Source: a virus. From it: 57,190 bases of DNA. The stretch covers positions 1 through 57,190 of IMG/VR virus record IMGVR_UViG_3300033183_000017; one strand, 5' to 3'. Every line of letters begins with the position of its first letter. Position 1 is the stretch's first letter. Below the pieces are notes generated by a model. That model saw only the letters and a program-made list of their open reading frames with translations, had not been told where the DNA came from and ran no database searches. A program made the position numbers and the translations under genes. This document shows, one piece after another, positions 17,728 to 57,190 of this stretch.

Positions 17728-18079
17728 ATCCTTTCAGATTGTCCATAAAGCGGGATAGTCTGAACGTATCCCACCAAAAGAAAATCTGTTGTCCGTGTTT
17801 TGCACTTTCGCTTGCGCTAAGTCTCATTTGCCACACGCCACCCTTTCAGCCATGGACGCCCATTGTGAGACTGCATGTATATCATGCCACGTCACGCCGT
17901 TTGCCGCCTATCGGTGCAAGGTAGTCGCAACCACCAAGGGAATGTTTTTGAATATTGTCGGTGCCACCATTCCGTAGAACCACCAAGGGGCCGAGGCCAA
18001 TTTCAAATAACGTGGGCGTTTTTTAAGTCGGTGTCCGATCCGCGTCCGATGCTTTGTTTTGTTTTCCTTTCGTGTTTTC

Positions 18080-18180
18080 GTTTTTGTTGAATTATTGATC
18101 GCAAATTAAAAAACGATTGTAAATAACTTTTTTCAACTATTTTATAAGTTATTGATTTTAAACGATTCTTTTTTTAAAAG
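18080..18180. other. AT-rich block with short direct repeats (candidate DNA-unwinding element)
   Basis: TTATTGAT occurs at 18092 and 18149, and AACGATT at 18112 and 18161. Runs of A/T are visibly richer than any flanking sequence. Confidence 0.4.
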
Positions 18181-18246
18181 TTCCTGTTTTGTTCTGCTTG
18201 TTCCTGATTCGTCGCTGATTCGTTTACGTTTTGTTCCCCATACTTG

Positions 18247-18400
18247 ACGCGGGGTGTGCGTAGGCGCGTTACGCGTGTGTGTGTGCGTACGCCTACGCGC
18301 AGCCGAGTGCGCCCGCGTCCGGGCGTGTGTGCGCATGTGCGCGGGTACGCGCGTGTGTGTGTGCGCCTGCGTGTATGCGCGCGAGGGTGTTCGCGTTATG
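18247..18400. repeat. GC-rich alternating purine/pyrimidine low-complexity tract, (GT)n/(GC)n-like
   Basis: Text such as CGCGTGTGTGTGTGCGTACGCCTACGCGC...GCGTGTGTGCGCATGTGCGCGGGTACGCGCGTGTGTGTGTGCGCC. Inverted repeat 18258..18266 / 18290..18298 has a (GT)5 loop. Confidence 0.85.
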
Positions 18401-18789
18401 TTCGCGCATGAGAACAAATGGTGAACAAATAGGGGGATTTTCGGGTACTGTTTTTTCATGGGGTGACATACCCGAAAAAGTGTTTGCGCACTGTGGACCC
18501 CCTTACAGACGCTCTCTGACGTTTTCACGTTTTGTTCCGCTACTTGTTCTTGCTTTGTTCCCCGACTCGAAAGCGTTACAACATTTTGACGGGGTGGCCT
18601 TTTTGGTAACGCTTTATGGGGGTGTGGTATTTGTGCATCACTCTTGCAAAAAGGACACACTGTTGCAAAATTACCACATTTCCCGGCCTTTTTTACGCTA
18701 GATTGACGCCATATCAGTAGGTAAACGCAATAAAAACAACAACTTAGCAGGTAAAACCCTCTGAAAAATACTAAAATGCCTTGCTTTGA

Positions 18790-18823
18790 GGGGGGCGGGC
18801 GAGGGCCACGCGGGGGTATGGGG
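18790..18823 (+). other. G-quadruplex-type motif
   Basis: GGGGGGCGGGCGAGGGCCACGCGGGGGTATGGGG has five G-runs of 3 or more with short spacers. Confidence 0.5.
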
Positions 18824-18950
18824 TTACGTGTATATGTACAAACACACAGAAGTGATTTTTAGAAGCGCAACCTATAGGTGTGTTGTATACAAAGTGGTGC
18901 AAATAGGCCACACTCTAGAGAAAAAACACAGAGTTATACGGAATAGGGGA

Positions 18951-18978
18951 TTGACTAGGGGTGTTTTGTGAATATAAC
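18951..18978 (+). promoter_or_regulatory. main rightward sigma70-like promoter TTGACT-N16-TATAAC
   Basis: TTGACT is at 18951..18956 and TATAAC at 18973..18978. It shares the extended context GTGAATA(C/T)AACT with the promoter at 34144. Confidence 0.55.
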
Positions 18979-18996
18979 TGCGGAGCAGGAGCAGCA

Positions 18997-19146
18997 CTGT
19001 TACACTCTAGTGTTACTACTCTTATAAAAGTATAACATATTAGAAAGTTAGACTTAGGATAGAGTTAAGACTTGTAAGTGTTACAGTGTTGCTGTATACT
19101 CTCAGGCAAGTAACACGAATAATAGTAACAAATAAAAGTGTTACAC
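18997..19146. repeat. cluster of (G)TGTTAC / GTAACA(C) motifs in the leader of the rightward arm
   Basis: Direct copies occur at 18998, 19010, 19078 and 19138. Inverted copies occur at 19110..19116 and 19125..19130. Confidence 0.8.
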
Positions 19147-19148
19147 TA

Positions 19149-19228
19149 CTGTACGTGACATATTTTGCGTGTGTCTCTTCCTCATGTCTCCCCTTCCGCA
19201 TGTAACTTGTGTCACGTACAGCCTTTTT
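19149..19228 (+). promoter_or_regulatory. attenuator-like element: perfect 12-bp inverted repeat followed by a T-run
   Basis: CTGTACGTGACA (19149..19160) pairs with TGTCACGTACAG (19210..19221), then CCTTTTT (19222..19228). It ends 14 nt before the GTG start at 19242. Confidence 0.4.
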
Positions 19229-19241
19229 GAGAGTTGTAACC

Positions 19242-19910
19242 GTGAAGCTGCCTTTCTTTAACCGTGAACGCTACGTTGTACTTAGTGCATACACCCCTGT
19301 GGAGTACTTAGTGGACCATGCGCCAGTGTGTTTAAGCTCTAAAGCTATACCAGAGTTTAACCGTACAGGTAAATACGACAGAAGTTTCAAGACATGTCAC
19401 GGATATATCGCATCTCTTAAACGTTCAGCTACTATCTTAGCTCCGTGTGACTTTGAAGTGACTGCTACTAGCGAATACTTTGAGTATCGTTGGCCTGAGC
19501 AGCACCATATGTCTGTACAAGAGCATAAAGACCCGCAATACCAGAGCCATACTGTACATGTTACGCAGTTAGGGCTACCCTTTGCTCTAAGATGCAACAA
19601 GAAAGACGTTAACTTTGTAGAGAGTAGGCACGTTCTTAACGATACGCACATGATTGTACCTTCCGGGGTAGCACCTTTTCCGTATGGCGTTAAGTACAAC
19701 CCGTTTAACTACATACCTAAAGCAGATGTGTCCTACACTGTGCCATTCAGGAAGCCTATCGTAGCGTTATACCCACTGTCTGACCTACCATTCCACGTTG
19801 AGTGTCACTTCGATCCAGATAAGTACCATCAGTATAGGGAATCTTGTACTAACCAGTCTAAGTTTAAGGGTTACTCCTACGCTCTAAGCAAAACAAAAGG
19901 TTTAGACTAG
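19242..19910 (+). CDS. paralog 1 of an unassigned three-member family
   Basis: The alignment with the paralog N-termini begins at GTG 19242 (VKLPFFNRERYVVLSAYT, compared with MKLKIPYLKRERYIVLKVYT). The open frame extends to 19209. Confidence 0.7.
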   Translation: MKLPFFNRERYVVLSAYTPVEYLVDHAPVCLSSKAIPEFNRTGKYDRSFKTCHGYIASLKRSATILAPCDFEVTATSEYFEYRWPEQHHMSVQEHKDPQYQSHTVHVTQLGLPFALRCNKKDVNFVESRHVLNDTHMIVPSGVAPFPYGVKYNPFNYIPKADVSYTVPFRKPIVALYPLSDLPFHVECHFDPDKYHQYRESCTNQSKFKGYSYALSKTKGLD

Positions 19911-19911
19911 G

Positions 19912-20583
19912 ATGAAACTCAAGATACCGTACCTAAAACGAGAACGCTACATAGTCCTCAAGGTATATACGTCTTTGCACTACCTAGCAGAGAAAGCACC
20001 TATAGTTGTATCTAAGAAAGCTGTACCTGCGTTCCCTGATATAGGGCCACGACAGTCAGGATTCCAAACGTGCTACGGATTTGTGGGGTCACTCAAAAGA
20101 TCGGCTACTATATTCTCGCCTTGTGACTTTCACATGACGTGTGACGGAGAGGATTACGTTTATACGTGGCCTCCTCAGATGGACTTTCACGTAATAAACC
20201 ATAATGATCAGCAGTGGTCACCCCGGGATATGTTTGTATCTAAGCTACGCATACCTTTTGCAGTAGAGTGTAACAAACCAGAGACACACTTTGTCATGGG
20301 TAGTCATATTCTGAATGACACAGAGATGCACATACCCACAGGCGTAATCACATTCGATCACATGGCTGATTGTAATATCTTTAACTATATCCCAAAGAAA
20401 CCACTAGAATACTTTGTACCCTTCAAGAAACCTCTAGCCCAGTTATATCCTCTATCAGACCTACCTCTTCATGTTGAATGTGAGTTCAACCTAGAAAAGT
20501 TTGAATCTTTGCGGAGACTTGGTGAAAGCAACTGCGCATTTAGAAACTCACACCTGAAGTTGATGAATACGAAAAAACTATAA
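19912..20583 (+). CDS. paralog 2 of the same family
   Basis: Shares FxTCxG...SLKRSATI, ILNDT.M..P.GV, NxFNYIPK, YPLSDLPxHVEC with paralog 1. Confidence 0.75.
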   Translation: MKLKIPYLKRERYIVLKVYTSLHYLAEKAPIVVSKKAVPAFPDIGPRQSGFQTCYGFVGSLKRSATIFSPCDFHMTCDGEDYVYTWPPQMDFHVINHNDQQWSPRDMFVSKLRIPFAVECNKPETHFVMGSHILNDTEMHIPTGVITFDHMADCNIFNYIPKKPLEYFVPFKKPLAQLYPLSDLPLHVECEFNLEKFESLRRLGESNCAFRNSHLKLMNTKKL

Positions 20584-20591
20584 AACAAAAC

Positions 20592-20619
20592 TTGACAATG
20601 CGAAACAAGCGAATACAAC
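20592..20619 (+). promoter_or_regulatory. sigma70-like promoter TTGACA-N16-TACAAC inside the paralog array
   Basis: TTGACAAT-N11-GAATACAACTATA here is nearly identical in layout to 34144..34176. Confidence 0.5.
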
Positions 20620-20879
20620 TATATGCATCTGATAACGTTATAGAAGAGTTCTACGATGCAATCGCAGCTAATGATAGTCGTAAGCTCCGAAGAATACACA
20701 TACCTAAGTCTGATGTTTTCTACGTTAGGGCTGCGATAGAAGCGGATACTGGTGTAAGGTACACTCTTGACCATGTAGAACGCGCGATGTATCTTGAAGG
20801 GCATCTGAAACGCACAGAAGTGCTAGACCCTGATAGAGAGCGTGAATATGAAATTGAAGGTACCGTTTCTAAACTTTAA
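20592..20879 (+). CDS. possible 95-aa ORF between paralogs 2 and 3 (doubtful)
   Basis: Track ORF with a TTG start. Its first 28 nt are the promoter-like element and no SD is seen. Confidence 0.3.
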   Translation: MTMRNKRIQLYASDNVIEEFYDAIAANDSRKLRRIHIPKSDVFYVRAAIEADTGVRYTLDHVERAMYLEGHLKRTEVLDPDREREYEIEGTVSKL

Positions 20880-21546
20880 GAACTATGTGGTGCTAAAGTG
20901 CTACACAGACAACGGGATGTTACACTCAGCGTTTCCTGTCACACTATCGGCAAGACAGAGTGTTATAAAGACAGACCCTGCTAGACCCTACGGTTTTAGA
21001 ACTTGTACAGGTCGCACAGCAACACTTAAGCGATCAGCTACTATACCCATGTGGGTAACTTACGATGTAGATGTCAGAGATGGTGATGCTTATGTGTTCA
21101 AAGCTGACGAACACCCAGACCTTTGTAAGTTAGATTGGGTACTAAACGGCGATGCCTACATGGGTTCCGATAAGCTAGATCACATGTTGATCATGAAGCT
21201 AGACTCACCGTGGTGGTTTGAAGAAGAAACAGGTGTAGACTTTCTGTATGCACCAAACATACACAATACGACTAGGTGGCATTCACCGTCAGGAATACTA
21301 AACTTTAAGTATCAACACGCAGTTAATCTGTTTAACTACATTCATGTAGCCAGTAATCACCAGTACAGAGTTATAGCAGGTACACCTGCAGTATCGTACT
21401 ACCCGCTGACAGACAAGAAACTGTATGTAGAATCTATCTACGATGTGGACAAAGTTAAGTACTTGAAAGACAAATGTACTACACGCCCTTTTTGGGGTAG
21501 TCACGCAGACAGAGTAAAACAAGCTATATGTAGTCATGCTAAGTAG
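20848..21546 (+). CDS. paralog 3 (more divergent) of the same family
   Basis: MKLKVPFLNFKNYVVLKCYT, FRTCTG..ATLKRSATI, NLFNYIH, YPLTDKKLYVES. ATG 20848 was chosen by alignment with paralog 2. Confidence 0.7.
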   Translation: MKLKVPFLNFKNYVVLKCYTDNGMLHSAFPVTLSARQSVIKTDPARPYGFRTCTGRTATLKRSATIPMWVTYDVDVRDGDAYVFKADEHPDLCKLDWVLNGDAYMGSDKLDHMLIMKLDSPWWFEEETGVDFLYAPNIHNTTRWHSPSGILNFKYQHAVNLFNYIHVASNHQYRVIAGTPAVSYYPLTDKKLYVESIYDVDKVKYLKDKCTTRPFWGSHADRVKQAICSHAK

Positions 21547-21745
21547 ACTGGGACTTGTACTAATACTAGCGGGTTGTAATACAGTAACATATACAGCATC
21601 GTGTCCTCTGGGTGATGACGTATGCCAGAGAAACCAAAATGCACAAACCCTTGCTATCATCGGACAAGAAGAAGCCGCACTGCAATTACTTTGTGAAGAT
21701 AGTACTATCAAGCGTACTCTTGGCGACAAGTGCAGTGGCGGGTGA
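21536..21745 (+). CDS. small Cys-rich lipoprotein
   Basis: MLSRLGLVLILAGC carries a canonical lipobox (L-A-G-C). The mature part has four more Cys. Confidence 0.65.
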   Translation: MLSRLGLVLILAGCNTVTYTASCPLGDDVCQRNQNAQTLAIIGQEEAALQLLCEDSTIKRTLGDKCSGG

Positions 21746-22394: not shown

Positions 22395-23097
22395 CATCAA
22401 CGATATTCAAGACCGTCTTGTAGATGGTACTATCCGTTCTGTAGGTGCTGTAGGTTATGCTGCTATTGGCGGCGTTATCGAAGATGGTGTGATGAATGAC
22501 TCGTATATCACATCAGAAGAGTTGAATGCGTACTTAAGCGCACGTGACGCTGTGTTGCAGCATGACTACGCTATCGCACAAACTGCAGAACAAATGTTTA
22601 TGCAGGAACACGCAGCGGCGATGAACAGTTTAGCACTAGCTGTAGATGATCTTACAGCAGCGACATCCGTAATTATGACTGCAGTAGAGGTAGCATCTGT
22701 AGCATCTGAGGCTGATACTAAGCCTGAACAAGTTGAGCTACAGGGTATGCTAGAGACAGATACCTACAGTATTGACGCAGCAGAGGTCAACGACTATAAT
22801 GAATCTGTAGCAGCAGTCGAAAACTTTGCCCAACAAGCAGGTGCTTTCATGGCGGCTGCTAATAATGATGAACTAACAGCTAGTATCGACAGCTACGCAT
22901 CTCAAGGCAACTTCTTGGTGGGCAGCTACACAGCTATTACGTACACACAGAGTGTAGACGAGTTTGTGATTACATGGGCTGACTCAGGCTTTGGTACTGG
23001 TTGGCAGGGTTACTTAGGTAACGACATGAAGACAGCAGCAGATGTCTACGGCGCAGGTGAGTACATCGAACAATATGGTGGGTACCCAACACAGTGA
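22261..23097 (+). CDS. secreted protein (signal peptide), unknown function
   Basis: MKYSKLLQTTSLSLALVTASVAANA|E is a classical Sec signal peptide. Confidence 0.65.
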   Translation: MKYSKLLQTTSLSLALVTASVAANAEINQSYEMTGQEKIEALISSINDIQDRLVDGTIRSVGAVGYAAIGGVIEDGVMNDSYITSEELNAYLSARDAVLQHDYAIAQTAEQMFMQEHAAAMNSLALAVDDLTAATSVIMTAVEVASVASEADTKPEQVELQGMLETDTYSIDAAEVNDYNESVAAVENFAQQAGAFMAAANNDELTASIDSYASQGNFLVGSYTAITYTQSVDEFVITWADSGFGTGWQGYLGNDMKTAADVYGAGEYIEQYGGYPTQ

Positions 23098-23639
23098 GCA
23101 TGGAATTCAGCATCGGTGGATATAATATCAAGGGATGGATGGTCGCTGTCGCTCTCCCTGTCCTATCCTCTGTTGCCGGGGGAGTGTGGTGGTCCTACGA
23201 CACCTTGCAGCGGTTCTACGGGGTTGAAGCTGGTATTCAAACTGTAGTAGCTAAGTCTGACGAGTTTGACAGACGTTCAAACGAACTAGAATCTTTACTT
23301 GTAGCAGCAGAGAATGATCTGAATGCAAAGGTGGTAGATGCTAGAAGTGTTGCAAAAGAGCAACAGTCTGCGTTAGAACAAAAGTTATTACTTCGTATTC
23401 AGACACTAGAGCAAGCTATACAAGATAACGATGTACGTGGTCTAAACCAAAAGCTTGCACAGCTAAGCACAAACATGACGCAGATACTTGAGCAGCAGAA
23501 AATCTTGCTAGATTTGCGGAGCCAAGTAGATAAAGCTACTACTGTTACAGATAGCTTGGATGACACACTTAAAACGCTACAGACTGAGATTGATGACATC
23601 TGGAAAGCGTATGACGAACTAGTAGATAATCCCTTATAG
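23094..23639 (+). CDS. type II membrane protein with long coiled coil (i-spanin-like architecture)
   Basis: An N-terminal TM segment GWMVAVALPVLSSVAGGVWW is followed by heptad-rich L/Q/E sequence. Confidence 0.6.
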   Translation: MSMEFSIGGYNIKGWMVAVALPVLSSVAGGVWWSYDTLQRFYGVEAGIQTVVAKSDEFDRRSNELESLLVAAENDLNAKVVDARSVAKEQQSALEQKLLLRIQTLEQAIQDNDVRGLNQKLAQLSTNMTQILEQQKILLDLRSQVDKATTVTDSLDDTLKTLQTEIDDIWKAYDELVDNPL

Positions 23640-23646
23640 GTGAGAC

Positions 23647-23913
23647 ATGGCTAAACCCGCAAAAGGCAAAATGTTTGCCAAGACAATAACAAACCCAAAG
23701 ACAGGACGTAAGAAAACTGTATCTTACGGTCAGGCAGGTAAAGCTAAAGATGGTGGTAAGCGTATTCGCCCCGGTACATCTAAAGGTGATTCTTACTGCG
23801 CACGTAGTGCAGGACAGATGAAGAAACATCCTAAAGCCGCTAAAAACCCTAACAGCCCTCTACGTCTGTCACGCGCTAAGTGGAAATGTAGTGGAACTAA
23901 AAGTCGTAAATAA
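23647..23913 (+). CDS. small lysine-rich basic protein
   Basis: 88 aa, K/R/G-rich, with ..VSYGQAGKAKDGG..KGDSYCARS..AKWKC. It recalls a small-protein family seen in marine phages and giant viruses, unverified. Confidence 0.6.
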   Translation: MAKPAKGKMFAKTITNPKTGRKKTVSYGQAGKAKDGGKRIRPGTSKGDSYCARSAGQMKKHPKAAKNPNSPLRLSRAKWKCSGTKSRK

Positions 23914-24499
23914 CTCACCTGTAGTAGTAGCCGATAACCTCTTCTCACAATTAGAATACAAGATGATGTTTGACGAGTTCAGACGAATCAAATCCAGAGG
24001 GTTACTGCTAAAAGGTGATGAGACAGGTGGTGCATCTTTAAATGGAGAACCTTTAAGTAACAACGCATCTAGGTTTTTAGATAGCTTATACTCAGAGCGT
24101 TCACTGTCTGATATGCTAACTATAAATCGTAGAATTTTTAGCGAGAGTGTAGTTGCAGGTTTAGCTAAGCTACACCCTTTCTACAAATATATGTATCACG
24201 TCAACGCAGATTCAACGCTTCTTAGTTACTACGATACTCACAACGAATATAAAGATCATCACGATGATGCAATCATCACATGTCTAACTTGGTTTTACGA
24301 AGAGCCTAAGAAGTTTATGGGTGGTGACTTTGTTATAGAGAACGATCTATCTATAGAGTGCAAAGCAAATAGAACTGTGTTTATGCCATCGTATATGATG
24401 CACAAAGTAGACAAAGTTAAGATAGGTCAACCTTATAAGAACAGAGGGTTTGGACGCTATACCATGACACAATTCACATACATCGTACCGAGCAATTAA
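23891..24499 (+). CDS. 2OG-Fe(II) oxygenase (prolyl/lysyl hydroxylase-like)
   Basis: KDHHDD (H-x-D) .. GGDFVIEN .. MMHKV (distal His) .. R. GTG start. Confidence 0.6.
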   Translation: MELKVVNNSPVVVADNLFSQLEYKMMFDEFRRIKSRGLLLKGDETGGASLNGEPLSNNASRFLDSLYSERSLSDMLTINRRIFSESVVAGLAKLHPFYKYMYHVNADSTLLSYYDTHNEYKDHHDDAIITCLTWFYEEPKKFMGGDFVIENDLSIECKANRTVFMPSYMMHKVDKVKIGQPYKNRGFGRYTMTQFTYIVPSN

Positions 24500-39308: not shown

Positions 39309-40259
39309 ATGGCTCTACAAAACTCAGGTCAAATTTCTTTAAACGACATACACGTAGAAGCAGGTGGGTCTAGTGGCTCTGCAGTTTCTATTAACGACAG
39401 TGATGTTCGTGGGTTGATCGACAAAGGGTCTGCCGCACAGATGTCTTTCAGCGAATGGTACGGCGCACAGGCCGAGGTTGTTCTAAGCTCTGCAGGTACT
39501 ATCAACGGATATGGTAACCGTAAACAAATCACAGTATCTAGCTTTATCTCTTCTGGTGAGACATTACGCATCCCATCTAATATGTATGTGTGGTCTGATT
39601 CTACAGGTACACCTGCACTAACGGTAAACATTCCCTGTACTATTATCAACGAAGGTCGTATTATTGGTAAAGGCGGTAACGGAGGTAACAGCTACGGTTC
39701 TGGTGCAGGTGGTGGTATTGGCCTACGTATCACATCTAGTGGCGTAACTATTATCAACGAATCAGGTGGTTACATCGCTGGCGGCGGTGGAGGTGGCGGT
39801 GGAGGCCGTTACAACACAAACATCGCAGGTGGTGGCGGTGGCGCAGGTGGCGGCAACGGAGGCTACGGCGCATTCCCTTACACTTATAACATTACCTCTG
39901 GCGGTTCTGGTGGTGCTATCAACGGTACTTCTACAGGTTCAAACTCTGGTGCAGGTGCTGGCGGTGGAGGCGGCGGCGGTGGTTCTGCAGGTGGCGGCGG
40001 TGGCCGTATCCTACCGGGCGTTGGTAAAGCAGGTAACTGTGGTGGAACTAACTGCGGTGGTATCGGCGGCAGTGGCGGTAACGTAGGTGGTAACCACCGT
40101 ACAGGTCAACAAGGCGGTTCTGCTGCTGCAGGTGGCGGCGGTTGGGGAGCGCGAGGCGGTACTGGTGGTACAGGCGGTTATGGTAACGGCGGTGCTGCAA
40201 TCAGTAAAACAACTAGTTATAGCTTAACAAATAACGGTACAATATACGGGTCTACATAA
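39309..40259 (+). CDS. glycine-rich protein, paralog A (putative fibre-associated adhesin)
   Basis: 316 aa. The N-terminal ~115 aa and several Gly-rich blocks are shared with 45958..46950. Confidence 0.7.
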   Translation: MALQNSGQISLNDIHVEAGGSSGSAVSINDSDVRGLIDKGSAAQMSFSEWYGAQAEVVLSSAGTINGYGNRKQITVSSFISSGETLRIPSNMYVWSDSTGTPALTVNIPCTIINEGRIIGKGGNGGNSYGSGAGGGIGLRITSSGVTIINESGGYIAGGGGGGGGGRYNTNIAGGGGGAGGGNGGYGAFPYTYNITSGGSGGAINGTSTGSNSGAGAGGGGGGGGSAGGGGGRILPGVGKAGNCGGTNCGGIGGSGGNVGGNHRTGQQGGSAAAGGGGWGARGGTGGTGGYGNGGAAISKTTSYSLTNNGTIYGST

Positions 40260-44143: not shown

Positions 44144-45958
44144 ATGGCAGGTTATCAGCGTCAAGATACAACAGGTCAATTAGCTAACGGCAATCCTATT
44201 GATGCCGACATCTTCAACGATGAGTATGATGCTATTGAATCCGCATTTAACGCATCGTCAGGACACACTCACGATGGTACTGCAGGTGGTGGTGCGCCTA
44301 TTGAGAGTATTGGCCCTAGTCAAGAACTAGAGGTCACAAGCGCTGCTGTGTTCCCAAAGAACAACAATCTTATTGATCACGGTAAAACAGCACTACGTTG
44401 GAAAGACGGCTACTACGGTGGTACTGTATACGCTGAAGACGCAGTGATCAACGATGATGCTTCTGTAGGTGGCGATCTTACTGTTACAGGAACAACTACA
44501 CTTAACGGTAATACTGTTGTAGGTGACGCTGCTACAGACACTGTTACAGTAAACGCGGATGTTGCGTCTAATCTTATACCAGATGCTACAGGTACTCGTA
44601 ACCTTGGTTCTAGCACGATGGAGTGGAATGACATATTCATCGACGGTACTGCCACCGTTGACACTCTTACTGTAGACGAGAACGCTACTGTAGCAGGAAC
44701 ACTAGATGTAACTGGCAATACAGGCATTGATGGTGACTTCGATATTGCCACAAACAAATTTACGGTGGCCTCTGCTACAGGTAATACTCTTGTAGCAGGT
44801 ACACTAGATGTCAATGGTGCCACTACTGTTGTTGGTGATGTAGATATTACAGGTGACACAGACATCACAGGTAATGGCCTAGTATCTGGTACCTTTGACG
44901 TAGGTGGTGCCACAGGTATTGACGGTAACTTTGACATTAACACAGACAAGTTTACCGTAGCGGCTATGACAGGTAATACAGTTATTGCTGGTACCTTAGA
45001 TGTCGGCGGTGCCTTTGGCATGGACGGTGACTTTGACGTAAATACAAACAAGTTCACTGTTGCTGCAGCTACAGGTAACACTGCTATTGCAGGTACCTTA
45101 GACGTTACTGGTAATCAGACAAACACAGGTGACCTAACTGTTAACGGCAATACTGTTTTGGGTGATGCTGCTACAGATACAGTTACGCTGAATGCAGATG
45201 TTGCATCTAACATCATCCCAGATACAACAAGTACGTACACAATCGGTGATTCGTCTAACTACTGGTCACACGGTTATATAGACGCTATCACTACTTCTGG
45301 TGATGTAGGTGTAGGCGGTGACGTAACAATCACAGGTGATCTAACAGTACAAGGTACAACAACTACAGTTAACTCTACTACTGTAGAGATCGCAGACTTG
45401 AACATCGAAGTTGCATCAAACGCAGCTACAGCAGCAGCGGCAAACGGTGGTGGCCTTACTGTAGGTGGTGCAGATGCCACTCTTACTTACGATTCCACTA
45501 CAGATCGTTGGGATATGAACAAAGACCTAGAGGTTGCAAACGTATATGCAGACCTTACAGGTGATGTTACAGGTAATGTTGACGGTATTATTGGCGGCAC
45601 TACACCTGCTGCAGTTACAGGTACAACAGTTCAGTTTAACACAGGTTTGACAGACGGTACCATTACGATTGATGGTTTTGTAGACGAAGATGATATGACA
45701 TCTGATAGTGATACAAAAGTACCAACACAACAATCGGTTAAGGCTTATGTAGACGCTGCAGTGGCAGGTGACGGCACAGGCGATATTGAGGTAGACACAG
45801 TTGATGCAACCACTATTGATTTAGGCGGTGGTACAGGTTGGACTATCACAGCCAACGGAACGACACTAGAGTTTAAATATAACGGCACAGTGCGATTTAA
45901 GATGACAAGCACTGGTACATTCCAAGCAGATGATGATGTAGAAGCAGAGGCATTCTAA
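44144..45958 (+). CDS. tail fibre protein 2
   Basis: The N-terminal IDADIFNDEYDAIESAFN..GHTHDGTAGGG pattern is common in phage fibres. There are multiple ~40-aa repeats (GNT..AGTLDV.G....DGDFD..TNKFTVA). Confidence 0.8.
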   Translation: MAGYQRQDTTGQLANGNPIDADIFNDEYDAIESAFNASSGHTHDGTAGGGAPIESIGPSQELEVTSAAVFPKNNNLIDHGKTALRWKDGYYGGTVYAEDAVINDDASVGGDLTVTGTTTLNGNTVVGDAATDTVTVNADVASNLIPDATGTRNLGSSTMEWNDIFIDGTATVDTLTVDENATVAGTLDVTGNTGIDGDFDIATNKFTVASATGNTLVAGTLDVNGATTVVGDVDITGDTDITGNGLVSGTFDVGGATGIDGNFDINTDKFTVAAMTGNTVIAGTLDVGGAFGMDGDFDVNTNKFTVAAATGNTAIAGTLDVTGNQTNTGDLTVNGNTVLGDAATDTVTLNADVASNIIPDTTSTYTIGDSSNYWSHGYIDAITTSGDVGVGGDVTITGDLTVQGTTTTVNSTTVEIADLNIEVASNAATAAAANGGGLTVGGADATLTYDSTTDRWDMNKDLEVANVYADLTGDVTGNVDGIIGGTTPAAVTGTTVQFNTGLTDGTITIDGFVDEDDMTSDSDTKVPTQQSVKAYVDAAVAGDGTGDIEVDTVDATTIDLGGGTGWTITANGTTLEFKYNGTVRFKMTSTGTFQADDDVEAEAF

Positions 45959-46950
45959 TGGCCCTACAGAACTCAGGTAAGATCACTTTAAAGGACATCC
46001 AAGGAGAGTTTGGCGGTACTGCCCCTCACTCTCTTAAGGAGTACTACGATGCTGCTAGTGGTGTACCTGCTAGTGGTACTATTAGTATTAAAGACTTTTA
46101 CGGAGTACAAGATACCACTGTTCTTACATCAGCAGCCTTGGTTAACGGTAAATCTAACCGTAAGCAAATTACTGCTTCTAGCTTTATTAGCGCGGGTGAA
46201 ATTCTTGAGATACCTGCTAACTTCTACGTCTGGTCTGATAGCACTTCAACAGCAGCCCTAACAGTAGACATACCTTGTACAATCCTTAACAAGGGCTTTA
46301 TTATTGGCAAGGGCGGTGCGGGTGCAGTTATCAGTGTATCCACCGCAGGTGGCGGTGGCCCTGCTATTAACGTTACGTCTACAGGAGTTACAATTACAAA
46401 CGAGTCAGGCGCTTACATCGCGGGTGGCGGTGGCGGCGGTGGCGCAGGTAACTGGCAAGGCGGCGGCGGTAACGAGTACGGTACAGGCAACCGTGCAGGT
46501 GGCGGCGGTGGTGCAGGAGGTGGTGCGGGCGGCACTGGCTCTTTCCCTAACTTTAACGACACTAGGGCGGGCGGCTCTGGTGGCGCTCTTGGAGCAGCAG
46601 GATCAGCAGGTCAGTCTGGTGGCGCTGGCGGTGGTGCTGGCGGCGGCGGTGGAGGCGGCGGTGGCGCAGGTGGGGGCGGTGGTCGCATCCTTCCCGGTAC
46701 TGGCGGTGCGGGTGGCTCTGGCACCAACGCAGGTGGTGTAGGTGGCGCTGCAGGTAACGTAGGTGGTAATCACAATTCTGGTAACGAGTGGTCATCTGCT
46801 GCAGGTGGCGGCGGTGGTTGGGGCGCACGTGGTGGCTCTGGCGGTAGTATTATTAGTGGTAGCTACGGTTCTTACGGTTCTGGTGGTGCTGCAATAACAG
46901 GAACATCTCGTACGCTTACTAACAACGGAACCATATACGGTACTACATAA
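45958..46950 (+). CDS. glycine-rich protein, paralog B (putative fibre-associated adhesin)
   Basis: 330 aa, a paralog of 39309..40259 (MALQNSG.I.L.DI, NRKQIT.SSFIS.GE.L.IP.N.YVWSDST, GGGGRILPG, GGGWGARGG, LTNNGTIYG). Confidence 0.7.
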   Translation: MALQNSGKITLKDIQGEFGGTAPHSLKEYYDAASGVPASGTISIKDFYGVQDTTVLTSAALVNGKSNRKQITASSFISAGEILEIPANFYVWSDSTSTAALTVDIPCTILNKGFIIGKGGAGAVISVSTAGGGGPAINVTSTGVTITNESGAYIAGGGGGGGAGNWQGGGGNEYGTGNRAGGGGGAGGGAGGTGSFPNFNDTRAGGSGGALGAAGSAGQSGGAGGGAGGGGGGGGGAGGGGGRILPGTGGAGGSGTNAGGVGGAAGNVGGNHNSGNEWSSAAGGGGGWGARGGSGGSIISGSYGSYGSGGAAITGTSRTLTNNGTIYGTT

Positions 46951-56973: not shown

Positions 56974-57190
56974 TCTTTACTTTCCTTAGATATTCTAGCG
57001 CCATGCTGACGCCTATTAGAGTATCCCCTAGCATTCCTATGCCTCTGTTACAAGGGTCACATATGTGGCCTCTGTATTCGCCTGTTTCGTGGTCGTGATC
57101 TAGCACTAGCTTACCCATACGTGTATCTTCTGCAGCTACCCCACAACACTCGCAATTACCATGAGCTTTATGTCCATGCTCTTTTTGTAA
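56960..57190 (-). CDS. Endonuclease VII-type nuclease, 3' part (57050..57190 duplicates 1..141)
   Basis: The same reading frame continues ..CDPCNRGIGMLGDTLIGVSMALEYLRKVKSEKD to a TGA stop at 56960..56962. It overlaps the GTG start of the next gene. Confidence 0.75.
   Translation of the reverse strand, partial: LQKEHGHKAHGNCECCGVAAEDTRMGKLVLDHDHETGEYRGHICDPCNRGIGMLGDTLIGVSMALEYLRKVKSEKD
57050..57190. repeat. Terminal direct repeat copy 2 (identical to 1..141)
   Basis: Same comparison as copy 1. Confidence 0.95.

Follow-up and report, generated by a model that had tools for sequence, protein, structure and literature searches.

What do three related genes of about 225 codons do at the head of one arm of a marine phage genome, and are they the rapidly diverging host-takeover or anti-defence factors that their position and number bring to mind? 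This question was raised by the viral record IMGVR_UViG_3300033183_000017, whose 57,190 nucleotides were analysed in full and are referred to here as the window. The three genes (copies 1, 2 and 3, between positions 19,242 and 21,546) had been singled out in a preliminary description made from the sequence alone. The window genome is that of an HMO-2011-type marine, podovirus-type phage, with Roseobacter phage CRP-207 (PMC9038755) as the nearest cultured relative. By profile comparison, the three genes are members of a very large, phage-restricted and uncharacterised family (PHROG 7084, Syn9 gp43-like). Their predicted fold is that of dUTPases, each copy is under strong purifying selection, and the family behaves as a mobile accessory gene landing in several variable sites.

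The three copies are open reading frames (ORFs) of 222-232 amino acids (aa) that can be aligned over their full length, and they resemble each other much more closely than chance would allow. Copies 1 and 2 share 45% identity (BLASTP E 6e-74), copies 1 and 3 share 31% in the local alignment (E 1e-20) and 29% in the three-way alignment, and copies 2 and 3 share 31%. Both the kinship of the three genes and the closer relationship of copies 1 and 2 to each other than to copy 3 had been noticed in the preliminary description, and both held. Its motifs KLxxP(F/Y), Y(V/I)VL..YT, F.TC.G...(S/T)LKRSATI, N.FNYI and YPL(S/T)D...VE were recovered as well, except that (R/K)NY occurs only in copy 3, with RERY in copies 1 and 2. 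Remnants of the LKRSATI segment are also present at the nucleotide level as direct repeats. The array, described as tandem, does consist of three homologous genes on the plus strand, but it is not strictly tandem, as copies 2 and 3 are separated by an unrelated small ORF, which overlaps the beginning of copy 3.

No named family could be assigned, in line with the preliminary description. Pfam, NCBIfam and PADLOC scans returned nothing meaningful for the three proteins, the small ORF, Syn9 gp43 or the 33 metagenomic relatives obtained in the first profile search, and a sequence-profile search of the PDB gave only noise (APH(2''), E 0.27) and no dUTPase. The uncharacterised PHROG 7084 was matched by copy 3 (E 2.7e-6), copy 2 (E 1.1e-5) and copy 1 (E 0.085). 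When 1.84 billion cluster representatives (50%-identity clusters) were searched exhaustively with the family profile, 1005 clusters were found at E<=1e-3 and 538 at E<=1e-10, nearly all of them of 210-260 aa. Syn9 gp43 is a distant member (hhalign probability 97.8%, E 1.1e-12 over 188 columns; E 4e-26 with the family hidden Markov model, HMM), and the S-CREM1 homologue was found with the family HMM at E 1e-24. Among cultured phages, copy 3 matched cyanomyoviruses only, and tblastn with copy 2 and with the distant member P0100 gave no match. Several genera of cyanomyoviruses encode homologues of gp43, and haloarchaeal tailed viruses encode a distant one, so that the superfamily spans bacterial and archaeal viruses. 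In Halorubrum virus Serpecor1 (Haloferacalesvirus; L040, 28631-29461), this homologue lies between a ribonucleotide reductase (RNR) gene and tail genes. A search of 185,579 species-representative cellular genomes, which covered the close subfamily, found no relative of that subfamily.

AlphaFold models of copies 2 and 3, predicted as monomers from the family alignment, reached a pLDDT (predicted local distance difference test) of 83 and 85, respectively, and were compared with the PDB and BFVD using Foldseek. A dUTPase or dCTP deaminase (DCD) was found in 50 of the 50 listed PDB matches for copy 3 and in 49 of 50 for copy 2, with best E values of 1.5e-3 and 3.1e-3, a probability of about 1 and target-normalised template modelling (TM) scores of 0.5-0.66, and these matches covered the whole dUTPase core of ~140 aa. 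In BFVD, the list of matches was headed by uncharacterised phage proteins (E down to 1.6e-13); viral dUTPases and inactive herpesvirus and adenovirus dUTPase derivatives ranked below them. Compared to dUTPases, the copies have ~70 extra N-terminal residues, which carry an invariant Cys, and two predicted C-terminal helices. The models thus indicate that the fold of the family is a trimeric-dUTPase/dCTP-deaminase beta-barrel with an N-terminal extension bearing the invariant cysteine (F.TC.G). This assignment agrees with two independent sources: Iyer et al. 2010, who had already remarked on the family and its fold in one sentence, and the database record of S-CREM1, which labels the homologue 'triphosphate nucleotidohydrolase'.

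The preliminary description had thought of a family of marine phages with a TC motif and a cupin-like fold. The marine spread and the invariant Cys of TC.G fit this idea, but the cupin fold does not. No cupin or 2-oxoglutarate (2OG) oxygenase match was found in Pfam, no cupin (double-stranded beta-helix) ranked among the 50 best fold matches of each model, and no conserved His-Asp-His pattern of a cupin metal triad was seen among the family sequences.

The dUTPase motifs were mapped onto the family. Alignment by hhalign with a profile of six dUTPase sequences was not significant (probability 0.3-5%, pairwise E 0.007); it was used solely for motif mapping, and its register, on which the following positions depend, is plausible but statistically weak. 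Motif I (A-G-x-D-L/I, with the metal Asp) was placed with low confidence and out of register near the family H-x-x-D at residues 96-99, and no Arg-Ser was found at the position aligned with motif II (P/G-R/K-S). Motif III (G-V-I-D-x-D-Y) aligned with (S/T)-G-V-x-x-F-K-Y, in which Gly144 is retained and Tyr or His occupies position 150. At the position of the catalytic Asp, copies 1, 2 and 3 have Pro, Thr and Asn, respectively, and the family as a whole has Asn in 46% and Asp or Glu in 29%. Motif IV (G-D-R-I-A-Q) aligned with x-x-P-L-x-x, with Pro174 in place of Arg in 151 of 168 members (90%) and a variable residue at the Gln position. The three proteins have no G-F-G of the motif V arm (R-G-x-x-G-F-G-S-T-G), their C-termini being the two predicted helices. 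Further, neither the dUTPase (PF00692) nor the DCD Pfam family was matched at E<=10 by the three proteins or any of the 33 relatives. From this mapping, with its weak alignment, we conclude that the three proteins have the predicted dUTPase fold but appear to lack dUTPase motifs II-V.

The hallmark of the family is instead a cysteine. Cys54, in a (T/S)-C-x-G motif, is present in 168 of 168 aligned members, including all three copies, and is also invariant in a distant set of 93 sequences. Other conserved residues are Lys111 (161/168, 96%), Gly144 (163/168), Pro115, Pro180, (S/T)-(D/E) at 182-183 and a frequent His at 96/97. Copy 2 is the only window copy with all the family polar residues (Cys54, His97, Lys111 and Asp183); Lys111 is replaced by Gln in copy 1, and the family His is absent from copy 3, which has a C-terminal Cys (..AICSHAK). 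About half of the family has another Cys, in a basic C-terminal tail that reads AICSHAK in copy 3 and KCPFGFG in a distant branch; only that branch has the latter tail. In its position and in its G-F-G, this Cys-bearing tail is reminiscent of the dUTPase motif V arm.

An alternative is that the copies are divergent but active nucleotide enzymes (a pyrophosphatase, a deaminase or a Cys-nucleophile pyrimidine modifier) that supply or cleanse deoxynucleoside triphosphate pools for DNA synthesis or modification, with three substrates for three copies. We consider this unlikely, although several observations favour it. Besides the dUTPase/dCTP-deaminase fold and the name of the S-CREM1 homologue, motif III is partly recognisable (G-V-I-x-F-K-Y compared to G-V-I-D-x-D-Y), an acidic residue stands at the catalytic position in the 29% of the family mentioned above, and the KCPFGFG end of the distant branch resembles the GFG of motif V. 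The complete window genome encodes no canonical trimeric dUTPase, yet it has RNR, thymidylate synthase and DNA methyltransferase genes, and two related contigs (L034 and L035) show the order MazG, RNR, family gene, glutaredoxin. Against these points stand the Pro, Thr or Asn at the catalytic Asp, the Pro at the motif IV Arg, the missing motif V and the missing Pfam matches, as well as the observations that CRP-207 and other cultured relatives manage without the gene and that the majority of loci lie in structural or accessory regions.

The pace of evolution was assessed by comparing the window with two strain-level relatives, L027 and L028, which have 96% nucleotide identity and the same three-copy architecture. 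There were 1 non-synonymous and 13 synonymous changes in copy 1, 0 and 12-14 in copy 2, and 2 and 25 in copy 3, corresponding to ratios of non-synonymous to synonymous rates (dN/dS) of 0.02, 0 and 0.02, respectively. These values are lower than those of the flanking and downstream genes (0.05-0.12). In a distance tree, copies 1 and 2 belonged to the same clade and each had separate orthologues outside the window, and copy 3 fell into a distant clade, with many proteins of other phages in between. Rapid divergence, as assumed in the preliminary description, is ruled out by the dN/dS values, and both a single recent triplication and the origin of copy 3 as a recent local duplicate are ruled out by the tree. 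Taken together, the two-clade tree and the dN/dS values indicate that the paralogues are old and individually maintained, rather than rapidly diverging.

We compared contigs from the same sample as the window, and related ones, around the small ORF, which is conserved even in nucleotide sequence in CRP-207, CRP-2 and CRP-603. The window, L027 and L028 carry copies 1, 2 and 3. L033 carries copy 1 only, with flanks that are 95% identical and with window positions 19906-20574 and 20846-21566 cleanly missing; this copy 1 orthologue (P0002) is 94% identical, and its 3' end is chimeric with that of copy 2. In L031 and L032, copy 1 is absent and the copy-2 allele is 56% identical, between flanks of 92-96% identity at the protein level, and the copy-3 slot holds an unrelated 226-aa gene (L031 2116-2796, also in L032) that resembles 2OG-FeII_Oxy_5 (E 7e-5, below the Pfam cut-off). 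L038 and L039 have one family gene, in the copy-3 slot, and CRP-207 has none. Thus, the copies occupy gene-sized slots on either side of the small ORF, which is a fixed anchor, and relatives fill these slots differently.

Outside this locus, 18 IMG/VR loci were mostly single-copy, only 2 of the 18 having two copies. In other HMO-2011-type contigs, the family gene was found in the tail module, between GP38-like Gly-rich and Laminin_G_3 proteins or beside a collagen-like fibre gene, in addition to the RNR-glutaredoxin setting given above. With this variety of insertion sites and the varied filling of the slots, the family behaves as a mobile accessory gene. The accessory character expected in the preliminary description was therefore confirmed by the 0-3 copies among close relatives, while a leading position turned out not to be a property of the family. 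That description had also held that assignment to a well-known virion or enzyme family with a mundane role, or a single conserved copy under purifying selection in relatives, would speak against host takeover or anti-defence. A known enzyme fold, a single copy in most related contigs, and purifying selection are largely what was found.

Non-enzymatic binders with a dUTPase fold, serving host takeover or counter-defence, with several paralogues directed against different host factors, would be conceivable by analogy with the Dut proteins of staphylococcal phages, which bind Stl repressors, and with regulators derived from dUTPases in herpesviruses and adenoviruses; we regard this as improbable to much the same degree as active nucleotide enzymes, if not slightly more so. 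Catalytic motifs appear to have been lost on a fold that viruses have repeatedly co-opted, and the presence or absence of 0-3 copies and the allele replacement in L031, in near-identical strains, would suit such a role, as would the first operon position beside a divergent control region in the window genome. However, the very strong purifying selection does not show the rapid divergence that would be expected, and the invariant Cys and conserved polar residues over >1000 clusters argue for conserved chemistry rather than diverse binding surfaces. The position also varies in relatives, from the tail module to the neighbourhood of RNR, and in the window it is in an arm for lysis, packaging and structural genes that is presumably late. 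PADLOC gave no match, which is a weak test because its models describe defence and not anti-defence systems. In all, no specific pointer to host takeover or anti-defence was found; the copy-number polymorphism is compatible with it, and the strong conservation speaks against it.

The tail-module loci raise the possibility of virion-associated or tail-fibre assembly or decoration proteins, whose varying number would mirror how the adsorption apparatus adapts to host range. Several HMO-2011-type relatives do embed the gene among GP38-like proteins, a collagen-like fibre with an S74 chaperone and Laminin_G_3 proteins, and the gene string of the window runs on into packaging and structural genes. 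As the window copies are 18 kb away from the fibre genes, known structural folds were not matched, every fold match was an enzyme and the family gene also occurs beside RNR, we hold this to be quite improbable. Selfish cassettes that spread like free-standing homing-endonuclease genes, of no benefit to the phage, would account for the clean, gene-sized presence and absence in 95%-identical genomes and for the occupation of several intergenic hot spots, but are very improbable given the absence of nuclease motifs and fold, the strong purifying selection over the whole protein, the huge conserved family of constant length, and junctions that fit normal recombination between the ends of paralogues, as seen in the chimeric 3' end of the L033 gene.

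The neighbours of the family in other phages suggest a different role. In cyanomyoviruses there is a conserved order of two flavin 'tryptophan' halogenases, the family gene, a small ORF in some, and one or more 2OG oxygenases. Four cyanomyoviruses of at least three genera have this arrangement, namely Syn9 (with Syn10), S-CREM1, S-RIM44 and P-TIM40, although identity is 38-68%. The Syn10 halogenase directly upstream of the family gene appears, by position and size (530-531 aa), to be VirX1, a characterised iodinase that forms a trimer (PDB 6QGM). In Syn9 (L007, 36054-36842) and Syn10, the family member overlaps the presumed VirX1 gene, and this overlap of the cyanophage halogenase and family genes suggests translational coupling. 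A Trp_halogenase gene (E 6e-32) also directly follows the family gene in L022, an unrelated IMG/VR contig, and 2OG oxygenases are adjacent to or near the family gene in at least four further independent contexts (L004/L013, L015, L021 and L031). In the window, a 2OG-Fe(II) oxygenase gene of the same arm is, from its sequence and placement, a candidate functional partner of the three copies. Neither this oxygenase nor the three copies were found in CRP-207 and the cultured roseophage records, and for both, the cultured-phage relatives were found solely in cyanomyoviruses.

Our tentative preference is for the reading that the three copies may be accessory, cysteine-dependent components of a phage modification chemistry of the dioxygenase/halogenase type, using a dUTPase scaffold without dUTP hydrolysis. 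This reading builds on what Iyer et al. 2010 predicted and takes it further. The copies would not be dUTPases, but cysteine-dependent accessory enzymes or substrate-holding subunits, and their partners would be the phage 2OG-Fe(II) dioxygenases (here the one downstream) and, in cyanophages, flavin halogenases of the VirX1 type. The target, modified late in infection, could be a peptide or protein, for example a virion or fibre protein, or an aromatic or nucleotide-like small molecule. The paralogues would then differ in specificity, and the presence or absence of copies might tune the phage to particular hosts or conditions.

Several observations weigh against this reading. The window genome has no halogenase, and no oxygenase or halogenase neighbour was detected at L002, L009, L012, L014, L016-L020, L023-L025 and L036, where the seed set used may miss oxygenase families. 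As so many loci are without such a neighbour, the link to oxygenases and halogenases is suggestive, not proven. Because the family occupies several hypervariable sites, its neighbourhood may reflect shared 'accessory islands' rather than pathways, and the L034/L035 setting between RNR and glutaredoxin fits nucleotide metabolism better. The motif mapping, with which dUTP hydrolysis is set aside, depends on a profile alignment of 5% hhalign probability. Finally, no single catalytic constellation is shared by all three copies, since one of them lacks the family His and another the family Lys.

A bolder version of the modification-partner reading, which we think decidedly doubtful, is that the family is a new cysteine-dependent enzyme class on the dUTPase scaffold. 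It would work with a pocket at the trimer interface and an ancestral Cys-bearing C-terminal arm, and would be the missing partner or substrate carrier of phage 2OG-dioxygenases and VirX1-type halogenases, in a pathway that yields a modified peptide, virion protein or nucleotide-like molecule during infection. The three paralogues, which lack different secondary conserved residues, might form hetero-trimers with mixed active sites, and in that case gain and loss of copies would set strain-level host specificity.

The features of the locus are listed in Table 1. As the two ends of the window overlap exactly over 141 bp (1-141 and 57050-57190), the window is a complete circular assembly of ~57,049 bp. 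A divergent non-coding region of 1.3 kb (about 17,930-19,240) precedes copy 1, and from there the replication genes run leftward. The leftward arm encodes RNR, a Cas4-like exonuclease, DNA polymerase, a DnaB-like helicase, thymidylate synthase, primase, an integrase and a methyltransferase. The three copies are thus the first genes of the rightward arm, as the preliminary description had it. They are followed by lipoprotein and coiled-coil (spanin-like) genes, the 2OG-Fe(II) oxygenase gene, and then terminase, portal, capsid and tail genes; this is the arm for lysis, packaging and structure, presumably expressed late.

Table 1. Positions of the three family genes and of neighbouring features in the window.
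Feature	Position	Strand	Remarks
Copy 1	19242-19910	+	222 aa, GTG start; clade A; family HMM E 1e-71
Copy 2	19912-20583	+	223 aa; clade A; family HMM E 1e-71
Copy 3	20848-21546	+	232 aa; distant clade B; family HMM E 3e-68
Small ORF, CRP-207 gp76 homologue	20592/20598-20879	+	93-95 aa (93 from ATG at 20598); outside the three-copy family
Small lipoprotein gene, o-spanin-like	21536-21745	+	right border of the copy-3 cassette lies within its signal-peptide-coding 5' end; varies among strains
2OG-Fe(II) oxygenase gene	23891-24499	+	PF13640, E 2.5e-7; same co-oriented gene string, 2.3 kb downstream of the copies
Inverted repeat (CTGTACGTGAC ... GTCACGTACAG)	19149-19171 / 19199-19221	.	directly upstream of copy 1; 11-bp perfect core

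The genes of the three-copy locus are tightly packed, with stops and starts that overlap or abut. Scans for internal promoter-like or terminator-like signals in the locus did no better than on shuffled sequence, and neither a tRNA nor a credible Rfam match was found near it. The right arm of the inverted repeat is kept in L031 and partly in CRP-207, and from its sequence the repeat may be an operator, a leader hairpin or another regulatory element of the rightward arm. Within the divergent region, positions 18244-18400 hold a GC-rich tract of alternating purines and pyrimidines (CGCGTGTGTGTGCG...) with degenerate repeats of ~29 nt; such a tract is also present in L001 (about 580-860), and a similar one occupies the same place in CRP-207. 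The tract could represent an origin, a Z-DNA-prone element or a genome-end-related feature. The small ORF gave no match in Pfam and PHROG scans. The small lipoprotein and the protein encoded at 23094-23639, which has an N-terminal transmembrane segment and a coiled coil, resemble an o-spanin/i-spanin pair; the counterpart of the latter in CRP-207 is named 'putative lysozyme', a name without support from a Pfam domain. Two paralogous glycine-rich proteins (MALQNSG...TNNGTIYG; 39309-40259 and 45958-46950), GP38-like in relatives, flank the tail-fibre region, and the local GC peak of 0.54 at 46-47 kb is due to the second gene.

One sentence published in 2010 had already pointed to the family and its fold, and the family is also represented by an unannotated PHROG; the window adds new members. 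New are the three-copy arrangement drawn from two clades and the clean 0-3 copy polymorphism among near-identical strains, as well as the several places at which HMO-2011-type genomes carry the gene, the selection regime and the motif-level argument against dUTPase activity. The locus is not the fast-evolving leading-edge weapon that had been suspected, and the finding is a solid annotation gain (fold, family, selection regime and cassette behaviour) rather than a new mechanism. It offers a handle on a large family of >1000 sequence clusters from marine and haloarchaeal viruses that is uncharacterised and that, in cyanophages, stands directly beside VirX1-type halogenases and dioxygenase arrays. 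The near-identical strains, with their 0, 1, 2 or 3 copies, and the one candidate partner oxygenase of the genome amount to a small natural experiment, with which the chemistry of the family could become testable.

Among known systems, the nearest are the Syn9 gp43-type proteins of PHROG 7084, which belong to the same family by profile and share with the window proteins the invariant Cys, the length class and the predicted fold; 2OG-Fe(II) oxygenases recur near genes of the family, though not at all loci. They differ in that the window proteins are only ~18-34% identical to them and lack two motifs of that branch, WW/PxWWK and the C-terminal KCPFGFG. The genomic setting also differs: Syn9 gp43 is one copy in a dioxygenase/halogenase array of a T4-like myovirus, whereas the window has three copies heading the late arm of an HMO-2011-like podovirus-type genome without a halogenase. 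Homotrimeric dUTPases (EC 3.6.1.23, PF00692) and DCD enzymes provide the consistently best and almost sole structural match, with the beta-barrel fold and, for dUTPases, a motif III hairpin that is still partly recognisable. Unlike them, the window family has no sequence-profile match to these enzymes and, in the weak alignment, lacks the catalytic Asp, the motif IV Arg/Gln and the motif V arm; in addition, it has the N-terminal extension with the invariant Cys and the two C-terminal helices. A third comparison is with inactive viral dUTPase derivatives, namely herpesvirus dUTPase-related proteins (DURPs) such as pp65, pp71 and UL31 and adenovirus E4 ORF1, and with the 'moonlighting' Stl-binding dUTPases (Duts) of staphylococcal phages. 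In these, as in the window family, a viral dUTPase fold has been kept while the enzyme motifs were lost or became secondary, and the herpesvirus and adenovirus derivatives appear among the weaker fold matches in BFVD and the PDB, although no sequence relationship to the window family is detectable. These derivatives and Stl-binding Duts are protein-binding regulators of eukaryotic or Gram-positive systems, whereas the invariant Cys of the window family suggests a chemical role and not just binding.

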